From: Methanothrix sp.
GTDB taxonomy: Archaea; Halobacteriota; Methanosarcinia; Methanotrichales; Methanotrichaceae
Direction: 5' to 3'
DNA: 33,942 nucleotides
Assembly: GCA_037128175.1 (NCBI GenBank)
Contig: JBAXWY010000030.1
Location: 1-33,942 of the forward strand
Under the pieces are notes generated by a model that made no database searches, was not told where the DNA came from, and worked only from the letters and a program-made list of their open reading frames with translations. Of this stretch, positions 1 through 14,498 are shown in pieces (within the stretch, counting starts at the first letter, position 1; every line of letters starts with the position of its first letter). The position numbers and the translations under genes were made by a program.

Positions 1-295
1 TGAGCGTAGGCCAAGCCAAGGTTGACTAGTTCGGCTCCTTCATTCCTTCTGTCCCCGACTCCGCGGGAGATCTTCAAGGCCTGCTCATGGCATTCAATGG
101 CCTTACGGATCTCTCCCAAGTGAGCGTAGGCCAAGCCAAGGTTGACTAGTTCGGCTCCTTCATTCCTTCTGTCCCTCATCTTACGAGCGATCTTCAAGGC
201 TCGCTCTAGGTACCCTATGGCCCTGCGGGTCTCGCCCATGTCGGCGTAGGCCATGCCCAGGTTGCCCAAATGTACTCCTTCATTGCCTTGATCTC
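1..295 (-). repeat. 120-nt period tandem repeat encoding TPR units
   Basis: Positions 1-55 are identical to 121-175; a diverged third copy lies at about 241-295. The 120-nt period equals 40 aa, in frame with the NLR-like ORF. Confidence 0.9.
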
Positions 296-2597
296 TCATC
301 ATCTTTGATGCTTTTAAGCCCGTTTCAAGCCAGTTAATTTTATCCAGTGGATGCAGGCGCAAATTAAAAACGTAGCCTCCAACGTACGCGTAAGAGCTAG
401 CCAATTCTTGGGATGATTTCAAATCACTATTTTTCAATTTACTGGGGCTTTGAATCGCGTTCTTTACCCAGGCTTGTCCAACTTTGATATTCGGCCATTC
501 TCGATCGAAAAGATCCAAGCCTGCAAATAGATTCATCTCGCCTTTTTTATAGAGATTTTCAGCTTGGGAAAGGACCTTCGAGTAATGCTTGGCATGTTTC
601 TGCTGGACATCAGTAAGTTCTTCTTGGTCGAGGCACGATTCTGCAAAAAGACGAGCCAGATCATGAAGTCTGTATCTTCCATCCCCAAAATCAGGTGTTA
701 CTGCAAAATCCACCAGGCTCCATTGCACCAAATCGCTCAGCGCCTCAGCCGATGGGCCAGGAGCCATCTTGAAAACAGCAGCCGCAGCATTGCGATCGAA
801 ATCTTCTGGAAAAACAGATAGACGTCGCCATTGCTTTTTTCGTCCGGGAGCGAGCAGATCATAGCTGAGGCTGAAGGAGCCCTTTACTAACTTAAGCAGT
901 GTTACTTTATCCTTCAGAAGTCTTTGGTACTCGGGAACGCTTAAATCCTTCTTTTCAGCTAAAGCGCTAGCTGCATTGCGAAGCGCAAGAGGCAGGTAAC
1001 CGCATATTTTTGCCAGCTCTTCGGCCCGGTCGCCAATGCGTGGGGCAATTTCAAGAAGAAGCTCGCACGCCTTATCTGATGGCAAGATATCCAGATCTTT
1101 TTCCGCCAAGCCTGGCAAGGCAAATTTTATTCTCGATGTTATGAGAACGGCGCAGCCTGCGGGGGGCAGCAGAGGCGCAACTTGCTCGCTGCCTGCGGCA
1201 TTGTCCAGCAGCAAGAGAGCACGCTTGTTGGCCAGAATGGAGAGATACAAACCACGCAGTTCATTTGAGTTTTCCGGCAGGCGATCAGCAGGATTGTAGG
1301 CCCGGATAACCTGAGCCATGGCCTCTGCGGTAGTCAAGGGTGGCAATTCCGGATTATTGCTTGTTCCCCGCATATCTACGAAGATCTGGCCATCAGGAAA
1401 TTGGCTCTTGATTTTATCTGCCAGGACCAGGGCCAGGGCGGTCTTGCCCACGCCGCCCATGCCACGCAGGCCGGTGATGGTAGCTCCCTTCTCGAAGTTG
1501 GAGAGGATGTCGCGGATTTCGTCCTCGCGGCCCTTGAAGTCACGCGGGGGCGGCGGGATTTGGCGAGGTATCACATGAACGGATGGCGCTGCAGGTGATA
1601 CAGGAGGGGCGGACTCATTATTGGATTTGATCTTAGCCAATTCACAATTAAATTGACCATCTGGGGATGAGCTTATATCCTCTACCCATTCACCCCGCAC
1701 GTCATCCCAACGTCGAAGAAATACGGAAACTGTTCCTTTATCAAAATCAAGATGCACGAAGTTATATGAACTCGTGTAGTGCGGGCTATTTTCTATTCTC
1801 TTGCGATAAGAAGCACCCGCCGGAATGATAATTGCATTGCCTTGTGTGCTATGCGAGGACTCTACTCTGGGCCGGTGCGTATGGCCGCAGAGAATGAAAT
1901 CACAACTACTTCTCATGGGCCGTTCGATCCGAATAAAATCATATTCCTCCAGCCAATCAAGAGGATGATGAAGAACTGCAATTTTGATATCTGCTTCGGC
2001 TAAGCCTTTTGCAGATTCCCGAATTTGCGGCTCCCCAATAATTAAATATCCTTTCTCAATTTCCTTTCGTCCACACCCCAACGCAGAGTTCAATCCTCTA
2101 ATGGAGATATTCTTCCCGTTGATTGACCAGAAGCAACTATCCGCATAATCCGGAGATTTCTGGCCGGTGTAGCCGGTCACGAATTTAGTGAATGCCCAAA
2201 AAAGGTCCTGTAGCTTCCTTCTTTTTCGTTCATCCGTTAGCCATTCCTTTGTCTGGGCTTCCGACTCGATCGGCTTCTGAAGATCAGAAGAAAAAAGTTT
2301 TAGCTCATCTCGATCAAGGTCATGATTTCCCGGCACAATAAAAAGTCGATTGGGTTTCAGAACAGTTGCATCCAAAATCGGATCAAGCAATTTTTCTTTG
2401 GCAGTTTGATATTCTTCAGGCTTCCCGCTAGATGCCAGGTCTCCGCTGAAAACGATAAAGTCTACCTCAGCCAGGCTCTGACTGATATCAGCTCGTCTCG
2501 TGATATCATTCAGAAGGGCTTCAAGCACGATTTCACGATCAAATTCGGTTCCTTTTTGATGCCAATCAGAGAGATGCAGCCACGTTAAACCCGTCAT
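1..2597 (-). CDS. NLR-like protein: N-terminal calcineurin-like metallophosphoesterase + NB-ARC/STAND NTPase + C-terminal TPR repeats (3' end beyond window edge)
   Basis: Hand translation from ATG at 2597 (preceded by GAGGAAGGA) gives an open frame to the window edge, >865 codons. MPE motifs: WLHLSDWH, FSGDLA, VPGNHD, VLHHP, CGHTH. Pro-rich linker, then DFKGREDE, Walker A GMGGVGKT, Walker B LLLLDN, VLITSR, GxP motif CGYLPLAL and MHD-like YRLHDL. Ends in 40-aa TPR units (EGAELVNLGLAYAHLGEIRKAIECHEQALKISR). Absent from the ORF track because there is no stop codon in the window. Confidence 0.93.
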   Translation of the reverse strand, partial: MTGLTWLHLSDWHQKGTEFDREIVLEALLNDITRRADISQSLAEVDFIVFSGDLASSGKPEEYQTAKEKLLDPILDATVLKPNRLFIVPGNHDLDRDELKLFSSDLQKPIESEAQTKEWLTDERKRRKLQDLFWAFTKFVTGYTGQKSPDYADSCFWSINGKNISIRGLNSALGCGRKEIEKGYLIIGEPQIRESAKGLAEADIKIAVLHHPLDWLEEYDFIRIERPMRSSCDFILCGHTHRPRVESSHSTQGNAIIIPAGASYRKRIENSPHYTSSYNFVHLDFDKGTVSVFLRRWDDVRGEWVEDISSSPDGQFNCELAKIKSNNESAPPVSPAAPSVHVIPRQIPPPPRDFKGREDEIRDILSNFEKGATITGLRGMGGVGKTALALVLADKIKSQFPDGQIFVDMRGTSNNPELPPLTTAEAMAQVIRAYNPADRLPENSNELRGLYLSILANKRALLLLDNAAGSEQVAPLLPPAGCAVLITSRIKFALPGLAEKDLDILPSDKACELLLEIAPRIGDRAEELAKICGYLPLALRNAASALAEKKDLSVPEYQRLLKDKVTLLKLVKGSFSLSYDLLAPGRKKQWRRLSVFPEDFDRNAAAAVFKMAPGPSAEALSDLVQWSLVDFAVTPDFGDGRYRLHDLARLFAESCLDQEELTDVQQKHAKHYSKVLSQAENLYKKGEMNLFAGLDLFDREWPNIKVGQAWVKNAIQSPSKLKNSDLKSSQELASSYAYVGGYVFNLRLHPLDKINWLETGLKASKMMRDQGNEGVHLGNLGMAYADMGETRRAIGYLERALKIARKMRDRRNEGAELVNLGLAYAHLGEIRKAIECHEQALKISRGVGDRRNEGAELVNLGLAYA

Positions 2598-2771
2598 TCC
2601 TTCCTCGAAATATGCTGGTTAGAATCATTAAATTATTTCAGGGATGTAGTTTCAGAAACTCTGGTCCTGAATTGATTTTAAGAACTCCGCTAAGAATATA
2701 TAATTTGCTAGCAACCGACCCGCATTTGGCTGTTATGCAAACTATTTTCAACAAAAATTTAAATGAAAAAT

Positions 2772-3068
2772 TCAGATCTTGTCCGCCCCTCCCATCTCCT
2801 TCTCCTTTTTGACCAGCCCGCCGTAGGCCACTCCCGCCTCCGTGAGCGCAATCTTTTCCCCCACCAGTTCGATCAGCCCGGCCAGCTCCAGGCGGTGCAG
2901 GTGGTAGTCGAGCATCTTCTCGCCCACAGCCGCCGCAATCTCCGGCACGCTCAAGACTCCCTGGTTCATGAGGATGATCATATTCCTTCTGATGGGGCTT
3001 TCCAGGGCGTGATGCACCAGAGCCATCTCCTCCGGTGACTCTGGCTTGGCTTTCTTTCCGATCAGCAT
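2772..3068 (-). CDS. ArsR-like winged helix-turn-helix protein
   Basis: 98 aa with the HALESPIRRNMI...SVPEIAAAV...LDYHLHRLELAGLI pattern typical of ArsR/HTH_20 domains. Confidence 0.8.
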   Translation of the reverse strand: MLIGKKAKPESPEEMALVHHALESPIRRNMIILMNQGVLSVPEIAAAVGEKMLDYHLHRLELAGLIELVGEKIALTEAGVAYGGLVKKEKEMGGADKI

Positions 3069-3242
3069 TTGTATTCATCAGGCGTCAGACTTTATATTAA
3101 GCAATGCCCGTATTAAATGGACCATGTCGGACCACAACATTGCAGCCTTGCCGCAGGGGGCGGCGAAAGCAGAGAGCTTTCATTCCTGCATCTGCCGGAA
3201 TGATAAAAGAGAGGACGCCAACTCAGCGGAGGGCTTAGGGCA

Positions 3243-3926
3243 ATGGCCATGATCCGCGCCCTGGCGGTGGACATCGACGGCACCTTGAGCGACCAAGATC
3301 GAGTGCTCTGTCCCGCCGCCCTGCAAGCGCTGCGCAAGCTAAAGGTGCCCGTGGTGCTGAGCACGGGCAACTCCCACTGCTTCACCAGAACGGTTTGTGT
3401 TCTCCTGGGCACGCCCCGTATTTTCATCGCCGAGAACGGAGGCGTGCTATCCTACTCCGATGATGAGATCGAGGTACTGGCGGACCTGAAAGTCTGTGAG
3501 GATGCCTTCGAAAAGCTGTCCGCCGAGTTTCCCCTGCAGAGATTCAGCTCCTCTCGCTACAGATTTACCGATATTGCCCTGCAACGCAACTTCGATGTGC
3601 CGGCTGCGGCCAGGCGCGTCCAGGAGCTGGGCCTGCCCGTGCATATCATAGATACCACCTTTGCTGTGCATATCAAAGACAAGCGTGTTGACAAGGGCAC
3701 GGGCCTCTCTCGCATTGCGAAGCGCATGCAAATCGAGCTGTCCGAGTTTGCCGCCATCGGCGACAGCAACAGCGATCTTCCAATGTACCGGTTGGCTGGC
3801 TTTCGGGCCTCTGTGGGCAACGCTCGAGCGGAGCTAAAGCAGATTTCCGACTACGTGGCAAATGCCGAATACGGGAACGGCTTTGCAGAAATCATAAATT
3901 ACATGAAAGAAAAAGAGATGCTTTAA
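3243..3926 (+). CDS. HAD-superfamily phosphatase, archaeal phosphoglycolate phosphatase / SPP-like
   Basis: DIDGTL motif I, STGN motif II, AENGG, KGTG and IGDSNSD motif IV. The start may be the second ATG at 3249. Confidence 0.9.
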   Translation: MAMIRALAVDIDGTLSDQDRVLCPAALQALRKLKVPVVLSTGNSHCFTRTVCVLLGTPRIFIAENGGVLSYSDDEIEVLADLKVCEDAFEKLSAEFPLQRFSSSRYRFTDIALQRNFDVPAAARRVQELGLPVHIIDTTFAVHIKDKRVDKGTGLSRIAKRMQIELSEFAAIGDSNSDLPMYRLAGFRASVGNARAELKQISDYVANAEYGNGFAEIINYMKEKEML

Positions 3927-8323: not shown

Positions 8324-9121
8324 CTAAAAAAATCGTGCCGCCTGAGTTGATATTTCATCTACAAACTTACATATTTCTTTCAGCACCACAGGATCGTTCA
8401 CCCAGATTCCTCCCTCGTAGTTGGCTTCTGTACCGCCTTTGGTAAGGTTGGCAGAAGTGACTATCGCCTCCTTCCGGTCTACCATGTAGATCTTGGCATG
8501 AAGCTTTGCTACCAGCACAACCTCTCCACCCAGTTCGTTGACCTCCTCCTGCAAATTGTCACTCAGGCCCAAAGAGTAGTCCGACTCGCTTCCTCGCATG
8601 AATACCCTCAGCTTTCCTCCTCTTCGGGAGAACTTTCTTAGTGGCCCTTTCATCCGGTTCCAGGTCTGCCTTTTTATCCAGGGTGACACGATTACTATAT
8701 CGAATTTGGCATATTCCAGCATGCGGTAGAGTTCGTCCTCGAATGCATGCCTTCCCTGGGGGGAACAGGTGCCCAGGAAAAGAACGCACGGATTTGTTTG
8801 AGATTTTGCGATGGAATCTTCCAAGAACTGCAGCCGCTTCGCGCCTGCATAATTCTCGGTCTGCTTGACTATCTTAAGCTCCTCTTCCAGTTCAAAGGCC
8901 CGTTCTTTCCACTTGAGCAATTGGGCAAAGTCACGCTGGAGCTGATCAATGCTGCCTTCTTTTTTCCTCAGTTTATCCTGGCAAAGGAGAAGGTTTTTTT
9001 GCAATTGCCGGCAGTCGTCTTGCAGCCTCTTGTTCCGGCTTTCCTGGAGCTGGATGATGCATACTGAGAATATCGCCAACACTAGAAAGATCAGCCATAT
9101 CAAATACTCATCCATAGCCAT
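8324..9121 (-). CDS. Membrane-anchored coiled-coil protein with single-HKD phospholipase D/nuclease domain
   Basis: N-terminal TM (LIWLIFLVLAIFSVCII), about 70-aa coiled coil, then IVSPWI, LHAKIYMVD (HxKxxxxD) and TSANLT...NYEGG. Confidence 0.85.
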   Translation of the reverse strand: MAMDEYLIWLIFLVLAIFSVCIIQLQESRNKRLQDDCRQLQKNLLLCQDKLRKKEGSIDQLQRDFAQLLKWKERAFELEEELKIVKQTENYAGAKRLQFLEDSIAKSQTNPCVLFLGTCSPQGRHAFEDELYRMLEYAKFDIVIVSPWIKRQTWNRMKGPLRKFSRRGGKLRVFMRGSESDYSLGLSDNLQEEVNELGGEVVLVAKLHAKIYMVDRKEAIVTSANLTKGGTEANYEGGIWVNDPVVLKEICKFVDEISTQAARFF

Positions 9122-11402: not shown

Positions 11403-11540
11403 CATTCTTCTATTATTATTAACTTTACTTTTTAGTCATATTTGCATTATTCTGTTTTGCATTTTCGTATTTCCCGCTGGCAACCTGGCAAAACCTTTTT
11501 CCTATCCTCGTTCTATGAAATGCGAGAGGAGATCGATGCG

Positions 11541-14498
11541 TTGTCTGCACCACAGGAGATAGTTGAGCTTGTAGAGAGATTTAGCAGCAGGATAAACGAG
11601 TATCGCTCCAGCCAGTACAACGAGACCGAGCTACGGGGTGAGTTTGTAAATCCCTTCTTTGCGGCATTAGGCTGGGACGTGCACAACCGACAGGGCCTGT
11701 CGAGCGACAGCAAAGAGGTGAAGCTGGAAGAGTCCATCCGCATGGAGGAGAGCATCAAGAATCCGGATTACAGCTTTCGATTAGGAAAAAGCCGCCGGTT
11801 CTTTGTGGAGACCAAAAAGCCCTCCATCAACATCGAGGGGGGTGTTTATCCTGCTTTCCAACTGCGCAGATACGCCTGGTCGGCGAGCCTTGCCGTCTCC
11901 ATTCTTACGGACTTCGAGGAGTTTGCCGTCTACGATTGCCGGGCAGAGCCCAGCAAGACGGACAAGCCGGGCAAAGGTCGCCTTCTCTACCTGCAATACG
12001 ACCAGTACGTGGAGCGTTGGGACGAGATTGCCGCCCTCTTTTCCAAGGAAGCGGTGCTGGGCGGATCGCTGGAAAGGTTTATCGAGTCGATACCGGAGAA
12101 GCGGGGCATCAAGCGAGTGGACGCAGCCCTGCTGGAGGAGATCTCGCTCTGGCGCGAGGCCCTGGCCAGGAGCATTGCCCTGCATAATCCAGCCCTCAGC
12201 CAGCGGGATCTGAACTTTTCCGTGCAAAGGACAATTGACCGGCTCCTATTCTTGCGCATTTGCGAGGATAGGGCCATCGAGGAGTACGGACGGCTCAAGG
12301 CGCTGCTCAAGGTGGAAGGGGTCTACGTCCATCTGCTCCAGCTCTTCGCCGAGGCGGACGAGCGCTACAACTCCGGCATCTTCCACTTCCAGGAGGAGCG
12401 GGAGAGGAAGGAGTCTCCCGACAGCCTGACCACGGCTCTGGTCATCGATGATGCCACGTTAAAAGAGATCATTCAGGACCTTTACTTCCCGGACAGCCCT
12501 TATGTCTTCTCCGAGATCCCGGCAGAGATTTTAGGCCAGGTTTATGAGCAATTTTTAGGCAAGGTCATCCGGCTGGAGGAAGGCCACAAAGCGATAGTGG
12601 AGGACAAGCCTGAGGTGCGAAAAGCGGGCGGAGTCTACTACACGCCTCCCTACATCGTGGAGTACATTGTCAAGAACACCGTGGGTAAGCTTTTGCAGGA
12701 CAATACTCCCGCCAAAGCGGCACAGCTTCGTCTCCTCGATCCTGCCTGCGGCTCGGGCTCGTTTCTCATCGGAGCCTACCAGTTCCTGCTGGACTGGCAC
12801 ATGGACTGGTACCGTGCCAACCTGGTTCCCCTTTTGGAGAAAAACCAGTCCACCGCTTCGCCCGAAGTGCTGCGGCTCCTACCGGCTGCGCCCGAGCAGC
12901 GCTCTGACCGGCGGGCCAGGAAGATCCACGCCCGCGCCGCCCAGGCATCGCTGCCCATCTTCAAGGCCAACGGCAACGAATGGAGTCTGACCACCACAGA
13001 GAGAAAGCGCATCTTGCAGAGCAACATTTATGGGGTGGACATCGACCCGCAGGCGGTGGAGGTGACCAAGCTCTCGCTCTTGCTGAAGGTCCTGGAAGGC
13101 GAGACAGAGGAGAGCATCAGCAGCCTGCTGCGCTACTTCAAAGAGCGGGCCTTGCCGGATCTGGGCAGCAATATCAAGTGCGGAAACTCACTTATAGGCT
13201 ACGATTATTATGATGATCATAAGAACCTGAGCACAGAAGAGGTGCAGAGGATCAACGCCTTCGAGTGGAAGACAGAGTTCCCAGAGATCTTTGAGCGAGG
13301 CGGGTTTGATGCGGTGATAGGCAATCCGCCGTATATCGAAAATCGATTATTGCTGCAGAGCACTGTTGACTATTTTCATGGCAACTACCAATCAGCGGGT
13401 GGAAGACTAAATACGTTTTCCTTATTCATCGAACAAAGTATAAATCAATTGGATAATGGCGGTCGTCTCGGAGTAATTATCCACCGAAATGCAATTAAAT
13501 CCAATTATTATCATAAACTTAGGGAATTCATCCTGAACACAACTTGTGTTGAGGAAATCGTCGATTTAAAGGGAGGCATTTTTGAAGGAGTAACAGGAGA
13601 GATGGTAATTCTGATATTAGTAAAAGAATGTGAAGCTAAAAAAAGAAATGCCATACAAACAAAAATTTTATCTAAAATAAAGGATTTATCTAAAAATGAG
13701 TTTGAGCGAAGCGAAATAAATCAGGATTTTTTTAATAAACTACCAGGTTATCGATTAAATATTTATATTTCTAAGGATGATGTTAAGTTATTAACAAAGA
13801 TTGAGCAAAATTCAATTCCATTGATCAAGATAGCTGAGACAAAACAGGGCATTATTGTCGGCGATGAATCGAAGTATATATCAAATTCTGAGATTAATGA
13901 CAAATACAAAAAGATATTGAGAGGGCGTAATATCGGAAGGTATAAAATAAATTATAAAGGAGATTATTTGTATTATGATAATAAAGCTTTAACTAGAGCG
14001 AGAGAGCAGAGAATTTTTGAGTGTAAAAAGAAGATATTGACTCAACATGTGAGCGATAAAATCATTGCAGCACTTGACGAAGACCAATATTATGCACTAC
14101 AAACCATAAATGTTGTTCTTATGAAAGATACATGTTTATCTGTAGAATATATTTTGGCTTTATTAAATTCGAAACTCTTAAATTTTTATTACGAGAAATA
14201 CTTTAATATGGGTGCAGATTTCACGACAGCAGTCGCGACAGAGAATCTTAATACACTGCCCATATATAATTTAAATTTCAATGACAAATCATGCAGAGGA
14301 TTTCACGACAATCTATCACAATTAGCCATTCAAATTTCTGAATTTAATAAAAAATTAGATAACAGCTTGAATGAATTTGAAAAATTGTTGATCACACGTC
14401 AGATCGAGGCCACGGACCGGCAGATCGACAGGCTGGTGTACGAGCTCTACGGGCTAACGGAAGAGGAGATCGGGATTGTGGAGAACGCGGCAAAATAG
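11541..14498 (+). CDS. Type IIG (Eco57I-like) fused restriction-modification enzyme: REase + N6-adenine MTase + TaqI-C-like TRD
   Basis: PDY...VETKK nuclease motif, QLRRYAW, GVYYTPP, LDPACGSGSFL (motif I), GVDID, GNPPY (motif IV) and C-terminal DRQIDRLVYELYGL. Start placed at the in-frame TTG 11541 after a GAGGAG RBS (the ORF track starts at 11442). Confidence 0.93.
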   Translation: MSAPQEIVELVERFSSRINEYRSSQYNETELRGEFVNPFFAALGWDVHNRQGLSSDSKEVKLEESIRMEESIKNPDYSFRLGKSRRFFVETKKPSINIEGGVYPAFQLRRYAWSASLAVSILTDFEEFAVYDCRAEPSKTDKPGKGRLLYLQYDQYVERWDEIAALFSKEAVLGGSLERFIESIPEKRGIKRVDAALLEEISLWREALARSIALHNPALSQRDLNFSVQRTIDRLLFLRICEDRAIEEYGRLKALLKVEGVYVHLLQLFAEADERYNSGIFHFQEERERKESPDSLTTALVIDDATLKEIIQDLYFPDSPYVFSEIPAEILGQVYEQFLGKVIRLEEGHKAIVEDKPEVRKAGGVYYTPPYIVEYIVKNTVGKLLQDNTPAKAAQLRLLDPACGSGSFLIGAYQFLLDWHMDWYRANLVPLLEKNQSTASPEVLRLLPAAPEQRSDRRARKIHARAAQASLPIFKANGNEWSLTTTERKRILQSNIYGVDIDPQAVEVTKLSLLLKVLEGETEESISSLLRYFKERALPDLGSNIKCGNSLIGYDYYDDHKNLSTEEVQRINAFEWKTEFPEIFERGGFDAVIGNPPYIENRLLLQSTVDYFHGNYQSAGGRLNTFSLFIEQSINQLDNGGRLGVIIHRNAIKSNYYHKLREFILNTTCVEEIVDLKGGIFEGVTGEMVILILVKECEAKKRNAIQTKILSKIKDLSKNEFERSEINQDFFNKLPGYRLNIYISKDDVKLLTKIEQNSIPLIKIAETKQGIIVGDESKYISNSEINDKYKKILRGRNIGRYKINYKGDYLYYDNKALTRAREQRIFECKKKILTQHVSDKIIAALDEDQYYALQTINVVLMKDTCLSVEYILALLNSKLLNFYYEKYFNMGADFTTAVATENLNTLPIYNLNFNDKSCRGFHDNLSQLAIQISEFNKKLDNSLNEFEKLLITRQIEATDRQIDRLVYELYGLTEEEIGIVENAAK

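Follow-up and report, generated by a model that had tools for sequence, protein, structure and literature searches.

A putative NLR-like phosphoesterase-NB-ARC-TPR protein encoded by a rapidly diverging gene at a conserved locus of Methanothrix

Introduction

DS-8, which was found in E. coli with DefensePredictor (Science 2026), is reported to be a metallophosphatase-NACHT protein that blocks phage, and its defence is lost when the catalytic residues of the phosphatase or the NTPase are mutated (PMC13092281). The same report gives its substrate as unknown, and its authors expect a cyclic nucleotide. Here, we describe a gene of related layout in a 33,942-nt stretch of DNA from Methanothrix sp. 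(contig JBAXWY010000030.1 of assembly GCA_037128175.1; G000:C30:1-33942 in our numbering), which is called the window below. As in DS-8, a single polypeptide carries an N-terminal metallophosphatase followed by a STAND NTPase, and the effector domains of the two proteins are homologous. However, DS-8 is bacterial, has a NACHT NTPase, and is experimentally validated, whereas the protein described here is archaeal, has an NB-ARC NTPase and a regular tetratricopeptide repeat (TPR) sensor, and is known from sequence. We suggest, with moderate confidence and by analogy with Avs, bNACHT, and DS-8, that it is a single-gene conflict sensor resembling the NOD-like receptors (NLRs), in which the repeats would sense a ligand and the oligomerised ATPase would switch on a nucleotide-directed phosphoesterase.

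A second described relative is PUA-Cal-HAD (DS-9). According to a preprint, its 'Calcineurin-CE' enzyme converts dNDP to dNMP, cleaves NAD+ in vitro, and depletes dNTPs jointly with a HAD phosphatase; the preprint cites the 'Calcineurin-CE' effector family as already described (10.64898/2026.01.15.699771). That system is reported to have a PUA-like sensor that binds m6-dAMP, to form a hexamer or filament, and to have an obligatory HAD partner. Its phosphoesterase is of the same family as the present one, which matches the NCBIfam profile for the DS9_1 anti-phage phosphoesterase (E = 1.6e-14), and that enzyme offers the best indication so far of the substrate class. A metallophosphoesterase-NB-ARC-TPR fusion may already be listed in the paper in which Calcineurin-CE was defined (Nucleic Acids Res 2023).

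Avs and bNACHT proteins, for example the SIR2-bearing Avs5, share the logic of effector, NTPase, and repeat sensor, with interchangeable effectors. The Avs sensors are described as large, irregular, and TPR-like (PMC13581612), whereas here we find a regular, near-consensus array of 40-residue TPR units and an NTPase of the AP-ATPase/NB-ARC clade. A 2026 census of prokaryotic STAND proteins gives 589 clades, 198 of them defence-associated, with the AP-ATPases included; metallophosphatases are not mentioned in its main text (PMC13581612). Calcineurin-like phosphoesterases are listed among the NACHT effectors in the bNACHT preprint (10.1101/2022.07.19.500537). A 2020 preprint reports NLR-like NB-ARC/TPR proteins, without a phosphoesterase, in multicellular archaea including Methanosarcinales (10.1101/2020.01.06.895854). 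The validated STAND or NLR-like examples in the papers cited here are bacterial (PMC13581612, PMC13092281).

For the NB-ARC-TPR body, the closest solved and curated matches are the AfsR-type SARP regulators (PDB 8k60), which are actinobacterial NB-ARC-TPR proteins; they have an N-terminal SARP DNA-binding region, whereas the present protein has an N-terminal enzyme. Fungal NLRs have highly conserved TPR, WD, or ANK repeats. They resemble the present protein in their NB-ARC/TPR composition, in near-identical units that vary at a few positions, in variable unit number, and in swapped N-terminal domains, and they differ from it in domain of life and in effector set. We know of no archaeal STAND or NLR-like receptor that has been tested experimentally.

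The first-pass annotation of this DNA, which knew of no characterised archaeal system of this kind, overstated its novelty, since the validated DS-8 (PMC13092281), the 'Calcineurin-CE' family, and NB-ARC/TPR proteins of multicellular archaea (10.1101/2020.01.06.895854) were in print. The kind of system and its logic are already known, as are the effector family and the occurrence of NB-ARC/TPR proteins in multicellular archaea. What appears to be new is the combination of a Calcineurin-CE-type effector with NB-ARC and consensus TPRs, together with an archaeal host and a locus that shows allelic behaviour. Our literature search for NB-ARC in Methanothrix or Methanosaeta found no paper on this family.

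Results and Discussion

The partial coding sequence, for residues 1-865, occupies positions 3..2597 of the minus strand of the window, with an ATG at 2597, and is uninterrupted in the six-frame list and in its translation. The first-pass annotation had read here, from a hand translation, a full set of metallophosphoesterase (MPE) motifs, an intact NB-ARC, and TPRs. All of the quoted motifs are present, in order, the Pfam scores are above the cut-offs, and the 865 codons form one frame without a stop. An effector, a NOD, and repeats are therefore found in one polypeptide, which is the NLR-like tripartite architecture. In public records, relatives carry the label 'tetratricopeptide repeat protein' or 'metallophosphoesterase'.

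The frame is still open at the left end of the window. The window begins at the start of contig C30, so it is the end of the contig, rather than a stop codon, that truncates the gene. The missing part, which the first-pass annotation did not have, is on contig C72 of the same genome, where a 5'-open minus-strand frame encodes 209 residues of TPR units and then stops (G000:C72:6073-6702, minus strand, outside the window). The last 26 nt of C72 are identical to the first 26 nt of C30, and the joined frame has 3201 nt and 1066 residues, 201 beyond the 865. An MBL-fold gene lies beside the TPR frame on C72, and because 12 of 17 related loci have the MBL-fold gene immediately after the homologous gene, on its downstream side, the adjacency of C30 and C72 is confirmed. 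TRF finds a tandem repeat with a period of 120 nt in window 1-300 (2.2-2.5 copies, 79-82% matches), and it is this TPR-coding repeat that broke the assembly. Among the public contigs aligned to window 1-3100, none spans position 1, so that no contig bridges the junction and the length is given as at least 1066 residues. The database protein P0002, identical over residues 1-700, has 1026 residues, exactly one 40-residue unit fewer than the joined gene; this full-length form has six regular 40-residue units followed by a 26-residue tail. The DNA was found in freshwater, lake, and sediment metagenome runs from 10 studies.

The presumed effector, residues 1-330, comprises a calcineurin-like MPE domain with a β-rich C-terminal extension (1608..2597, minus strand; from Pfam, PADLOC, NCBIfam, and AlphaFold2). 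Pfam Metallophos matches residues 7-243 (E = 4.4e-14, 53.8 bits against a cut-off of 21.5), and five motif blocks are found, DxH at residues 9-13, GD at 50-54, GNHD at 89-93, HH at 208-212, and GHTH at 237-241, which places the domain in the calcineurin-like metallophosphoesterase superfamily. In an alignment of 35 sequences, with relatives 36-62% identical, each metal-binding residue is either invariant or conserved to 90% or more. The domain also matches the NCBIfam DS8_antiphage profile over its positions 1-285 (E = 5.4e-40) and the PADLOC model PDC-S60 over positions 4-265 of 1027 (E = 2.5e-37). The papers searched contain no mention of 'PDC-S60'. The AlphaFold2 model of residues 1-340 has a pLDDT of 90.5 and a pTM of 0.90. 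The closest structures to it are those of B. subtilis YydB (an integrative model, E = 1e-23), followed in order by purple acid phosphatases, Rv0805, GpdQ, Lmo2642, and SMPDL3A; a literature search on YydB/YydD found nothing on function. A homodimer prediction for the MPE domain gave a median score of 0.21, below the mark of 0.42, which counts neither for nor against oligomerisation.

What would this phosphoesterase act on? An NLR-like sensor whose phosphoesterase is a DNA or RNA nuclease, in the manner of Mre11/SbcD, is an alternative that we consider improbable. It would fit the match to PADLOC PDLC00736 (E = 5.2e-30), a model labelled 'Effector Endonuclease', the weak match to NCBIfam SbcD (E = 1.5e-3), and the appearance of Mre11 structures in the fold search (E about 1e-7). 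However, Mre11 appears there only from rank 39 onward, behind YydB and all of the phosphatases and phosphodiesterases named above, and from this order a small-molecule phosphoester would be a more likely substrate than DNA. Furthermore, the PUA-Cal-HAD relative is reported to act on dNDP and NAD+ (10.64898/2026.01.15.699771), and the expectation of the DS-8 authors is for a cyclic nucleotide (PMC13092281).

The effector is not constant among relatives of the gene. At the same locus in L025, with the same flanking genes, there is a 1183-residue SIR2_2-NB-ARC-TPR gene. Similarly, the database protein P0120 is 81% identical over 677 residues, from about residue 350 to the C-terminus, and has an unrelated N-terminus with SIR2_2. 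The NB-ARC-TPR bodies of P0120 and the L025 gene are 81-85% identical to the one in the window. The start of similarity to P0120 identifies a proline-rich linker, residues 331-349 (1551..1607, minus strand), as the junction of the effector-module exchange. The SIR2 domain of the SIR2-bearing allele matches models of the defence proteins ThsA, LmuA, and Dsr1/2. Of the N-termini on the NB-ARC clade, 24 were scanned from the 30 best loci, leaving out four loci with fewer than 100 residues before the P-loop and one without a P-loop frame. Metallophos was found in 18, SIR2 in one, and TIR in one, and four were without a match. From these comparisons, the effector appears to be a replaceable cassette, with the same NB-ARC-TPR body carrying SIR2 or TIR in related genomes.

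We scored 8000 candidate relatives, of which 3184 match residues 1-700 at E ≤ 1e-3. The best 120 of these 3184 are nearly all 900-1300 residues long with the same three parts, and the organism names given for them are all Methanothrix or Methanosarcinales. The species-representative genomes gave 17 related loci, all in Methanothrix or in Methanotrichaceae metagenome-assembled genomes. The host is thus, as the first-pass annotation took it to be, a methanogen, and more precisely a filamentous acetoclastic methanogen of the Methanothrix family.

The gene order at these loci is conserved: HAD hydrolase, a 532-residue open reading frame (in six genomes), the 98-residue gene, the STAND gene, the MBL-fold gene, two genes, and Mch. 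Across the 17 loci, the STAND gene is 47-90% identical to the one in the window, while the HAD hydrolase is 78-97% identical, the 98-residue gene 85-92%, and the MBL-fold gene 83-96% (the broken L014 copy has 72%). The contrast is seen, for example, in L027 (47% for the STAND gene against 87-91% for the flanks), L019 (61% against 83-91%), and L024 (65% against 92-94%). Thus, although its chromosomal position is conserved, the STAND gene diverges much more quickly than the genes on either side. The divergence is also mosaic. In 55 full-length relatives, the median identity of the NB-ARC part is 80% (range 61-88%), and that of the MPE part is 53%, with steps of about 91, 76, and 45-57%.

The NB-ARC clade is present in 53 of 101 family genomes and in 31 of 64 high-quality genomes, with 1-5 matches each. 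By genus, it was found in 33 of 54 genomes of the window's own genus, in 11 of 16 of a second, and in none of 7 of a third. Five genomes of the same genus that lack the NB-ARC gene were compared, and an orthologue of the MBL-fold gene was found in three; in two of those genomes, about 10 kb on one side of the MBL-fold orthologue contained neither the HAD gene nor the 98-residue gene.

Could the copy in the window be decaying or inactive? Such decay does occur in the clade, as 13 of 103 matches have in-frame stops, the STAND frame appears fragmented in L024 and L027, and in a paralogue on contig C4 of this genome, the frame is broken in two. For the present copy, we think it very improbable. 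The 865 residues and the 201 residues on C72 are uninterrupted, with all of the catalytic and nucleotide-binding motifs intact, and versions identical over residues 1-700 are present in other assemblies.

The C4 paralogue (G000:C4:133564-135757, plus strand; loci L003/L009) belongs to the same NB-ARC clade and is 52-67% identical. It is divided within the NTPase into overlapping frames of 240 and 513 residues and is likely to be a frameshifted pseudogene or an assembly error. In another genome, a 12-kb stretch of one contig (G484:C11:54441-65847) holds five matches to the NB-ARC part, three with in-frame stops, which looks like a decaying tandem array of the family.

Residues 350-700 (498..1550, minus strand) form the NB-ARC, or AP-ATPase type, STAND NTPase with its helical and winged-helix parts, as judged from Pfam, AfsR 8k60, and the motifs. 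Pfam NB-ARC matches residues 359-558 (E = 7.8e-9, 35.6 bits against a cut-off of 23.5), and no NACHT match was seen in the protein at E ≤ 0.01. The motifs follow in order: GMGGVGKT at residues 379-386 (window 1440-1463), LLLLDN at 461-466 (1200-1217), GYLP at 533-539 (981-1001), and LHD at 643-648 (654-671), all on the minus strand, which we take to be the Walker A, Walker B, GLPL-like, and MHD-like motifs, respectively. The domain thus belongs to the NB-ARC/AP-ATPase clade of STAND proteins. Between the NTPase and the regular TPR units is a helical spacer, residues 701-760 (318..497, minus strand), with a median identity of 59% against 80% for the NB-ARC part in the 55 full-length relatives.

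The closest solved chain to the NB-ARC part is AfsR 8k60 (E = 2.3e-51, residues 340-660). The NCBIfam AfsR profile also matches (E = 2.5e-61), at 207.8 bits against a cut-off of 1430 and over positions 269-621 of 986 only, so that the protein does not fall within the SARP/AfsR family. This similarity raises the question of whether the gene is a housekeeping switch comparable to MalT or AfsR, in which NB-ARC-TPR senses an endogenous metabolite or partner and a phosphodiesterase clears a second messenger, such as cAMP or c-di-AMP. The strongest NTPase matches, to AfsR and to HaaT-type proteins, are those expected for such a switch, as are a fixed, syntenic locus among core-type genes, the cyclic-nucleotide phosphodiesterases Rv0805 and Lmo2642 among the structural neighbours of the MPE model, and the lack of an Avs or NLR match in PADLOC. 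Nevertheless, we regard a housekeeping switch as unlikely. Neither a DNA-binding domain nor any other domain for regulatory output is present in the protein, and the AfsR profile is matched only in part. A dedicated second-messenger role fits poorly with an output that is exchanged for SIR2 or TIR while the body stays nearly identical, and the clade is found in only about half of the family genomes, with some copies broken. Furthermore, the gene diverges far faster than its flanks.

The presumed sensor begins in the window with the first 2.6 TPR units of 40 residues, residues 761-865 (3..317, minus strand; Pfam TPR and TRF), and several TPR Pfam families match residues 777-864. In the joined gene, the C-terminal array has at least eight 40-residue units. 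We collected 641 ungapped 40-residue units from 102 of the best 120 relatives, with 1-11 units per protein. The scaffold positions L1, E13, L17, G21, L27, and A33 have less than 0.7 bits of entropy. The five most variable positions, 16, 15, 22, 25, and 26, have 3.0-3.5 bits; all are in the first helix, with the spacing of one helix face. We take these positions, from what is known of TPR structures, to face the ligand-binding groove. Among the 101 proteins with at least two units, 38 hold a pair that is at least 80% identical and 16 hold a pair that is at least 90% identical. Within proteins, 154 unit pairs share 80-99% identity, and the five positions account for 36% of the differences in them, compared with 12.5% for an even distribution, although this comparison is partly circular, as the positions were picked from the same data set.

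A receptor for self/non-self recognition or programmed cell death in a multicellular filament, triggered by a polymorphic protein of the host or a neighbour as in the heterokaryon-incompatibility NLRs of fungi, would also have highly similar repeat units that vary at few positions, a variable number of units, and alleles with different effectors at one locus. According to a preprint, the occurrence of NLR-like architectures follows that of multicellular prokaryotes, among them Methanosarcinales (10.1101/2020.01.06.895854). However, no partner locus or polymorphic trigger is known, and the experimentally tested prokaryotic STAND proteins with enzymatic effectors are reported to act against phage (PMC13581612, PMC13092281). 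We therefore think this explanation quite unlikely.

How widely is the MPE module used elsewhere? A search with residues 1-340 gave 9065 representative clusters at E ≤ 1e-3, of which 691 reach E ≤ 1e-30, and the module is almost always N-terminal, in proteins of 313-2616 residues. Domain partners were scanned in 44 of 150 listed hits, which were picked by length and not at random. A STAND NTPase is present in 24 of these 44: NACHT in 12, NB-ARC in six, nSTAND1 in three, and nSTAND5, NPHP3_N, and AAA_16 in one each. KAP, AAA_21, and AAA_35 are found in one protein each, and the C-terminal parts are HEAT, FGE-sulfatase, WD40, TPR, or PAS. Additional domains are TIR (two proteins) and SIR2, PNP_UDP_1, NTase-conflict, EAD8, and NA-iREase1 (one each). 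The MPE domain would therefore seem, in this sample, to be a widespread N-terminal module on many kinds of STAND and other ATPases. In the phylum of the window, it is rare, being found in seven of 401 genomes including this one (E ≤ 1e-20). Locus searches that started from non-Methanothrix MPE-NB-ARC-TPR representatives returned none for P0259 and weak partial relatives only for P0168.

A different archaeal family of this phylum has, in three genomes, genes for MPE-NACHT-FGE-sulfatase proteins of 1105-1130 residues (L071 in G145, L072 in G332, and L073 in G372). This architecture also occurs in bacterial representatives, and the N-terminal MPE-NACHT order is as in DS-8. In a genome of the same family as the window (L075, G152:C3), a 554-residue MPE-TIR protein (2087-3748, minus strand) is directly upstream of a TIR-NB-ARC-TPR protein (2-2068, minus strand). 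Here, the phosphoesterase, instead of being fused, may be recruited in trans by a TIR-TIR contact.

The close neighbours of the gene are the HAD hydrolase, an MFS transporter, CbiM, and, on C72, the MBL-fold gene, with Mch further along the locus. Directly upstream is the 98-residue gene (2772..3068, minus strand), which adjoins the homologous gene in 15 of the 17 related loci; it is full-length in 13 loci, which give the 85-92% identity, and partial in L027 and L014. It matched no Pfam or PADLOC family. By eye, its product might resemble a small winged-helix regulator. Genes for IS110-family transposases are inserted between the 98-residue gene and the STAND gene in L017 (8348-9403, minus strand) and L028 (8355-9659, minus strand). 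The open reading frame between the HAD and 98-residue genes has 532-544 residues with CarboxypepD_reg and is found in L015, L017, L019, L020, L022, and L024 (at about 7.2-9.4 kb in each). The window lacks this frame, with a gap of only about 175 nt between the HAD gene and the 98-residue gene.

The HAD gene (window 3243-3926) was considered as a partner like that of DS-9, which we set aside as the main reading. It is equally conserved beside the SIR2 allele (97% in L025) and is of the Hydrolase_3 type, and PADLOC gave no match for it, for the 98-residue gene, or for the MBL-fold gene. Its adjacency is probably coincidental.

Further along the window, a type IIG restriction-modification enzyme of 1018 residues (11442-14495, plus strand) has Eco57I, N6_Mtase, and TaqI_C domains and matches PADLOC REase_MTase_IIG (E = 8.9e-190). 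It lies in the stretch of lowest G+C of the window (0.39 at 13-14 kb), and a 74% identical copy is present in L012. A 265-residue PLD-like protein (PLDc_2; 8324-9121, minus strand), about 6 kb away from the STAND gene, gives weak matches to DrmC and to the PLD protein of Mokosh; its gene is between a thermosome gene and cobalt transporter genes.

The conflict sensor that we propose would work as follows. At rest, an ADP-bound NB-ARC and the TPR array would hold the protein as a monomer with an inactive phosphoesterase. Activation would start when the variable TPR face binds a foreign ligand, in all likelihood a protein of a virus or mobile element, which would permit nucleotide exchange and oligomerisation. 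The phosphoesterase domains would then be clustered and activated, and the active enzyme would hydrolyse an abundant nucleotide-type metabolite, which may be (d)NDP/(d)NTP, NAD+, or an oligonucleotide signal, either cyclic or linear. As a result, the infected cell of the filament would stop growing or die.

The first-pass annotation had already read the gene as an immune receptor, which is still the best reading to hand, and part of its case stands. The strongest support comes from the exchange of effector cassettes at one locus, the fast, mosaic divergence, and the homology of the effector to a validated bacterial system, with its DS8_antiphage, DS9_1, and PDC-S60 matches. The variable and broken copies and the occurrence of the MPE on many STAND proteins are also consistent with it. 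The architecture counts in its favour as well, as the Metallophos, NB-ARC, and TPR families were found and the motifs are intact.

Several observations weigh against this reading. The gene is at a conserved position among housekeeping-type genes and not in a dense defence island, and the nearest defence gene, the type IIG enzyme, is about 9 kb away. At E ≤ 0.01, PADLOC gave four families, PDC-S60, the 'Effector' model, and two TPR models, with no Avs or NLR model among them, and the PDC-S60 match is limited to the effector domain, short of the whole profile. The DS8_antiphage score is 137 bits against a cut-off of 790, and the remaining roughly 700 profile positions are unmatched; only the effector domain is in common, and the protein is outside the DS-8 equivalog (NCBIfam NF053861). 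That this profile was built from the published DS-8 is also something that we infer from its name. The best full-length-like NTPase matches are regulators such as AfsR, and HaaT-type proteins too. The concentration of differences on one TPR helix face is suggestive only. Two exact 213-nt contigs inside the gene, both from RNA libraries of one sample and found among the public contigs compared with window 1-3100, are a weak hint of transcription and not proof. Finally, the function and substrate, for this gene as for its archaeal relatives, are ones that we infer.

A broader proposal, which we put forward tentatively as a possibility short of probable, is that Methanothrix keeps one chromosomal 'immune receptor locus' like the NLR loci of fungi and plants. 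Effector cassettes, including several phosphoesterase types and SIR2, with TIR on a paralogue, would be exchanged at the proline-rich linker, and the consensus TPR array would diversify as units are duplicated, its variation being focused on a single face of a helix. If so, repeat-shuffling innate immunity or allorecognition would have arisen independently in archaea, in a multicellular filament, and its output would be collapse of the nucleotide pool by a Calcineurin-CE-type enzyme.

Conclusions

The gene does not open a new category of system. The family nevertheless offers a compact test case in an environmentally dominant methanogen, with an effector that has a validated bacterial counterpart. 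There are natural alleles that differ only in the effector cassette, and the sensor is a simple repeat whose variable positions can be read directly. A substrate found here would also shed light on DS-8 and on bacterial proteins with this module, which number in the thousands.

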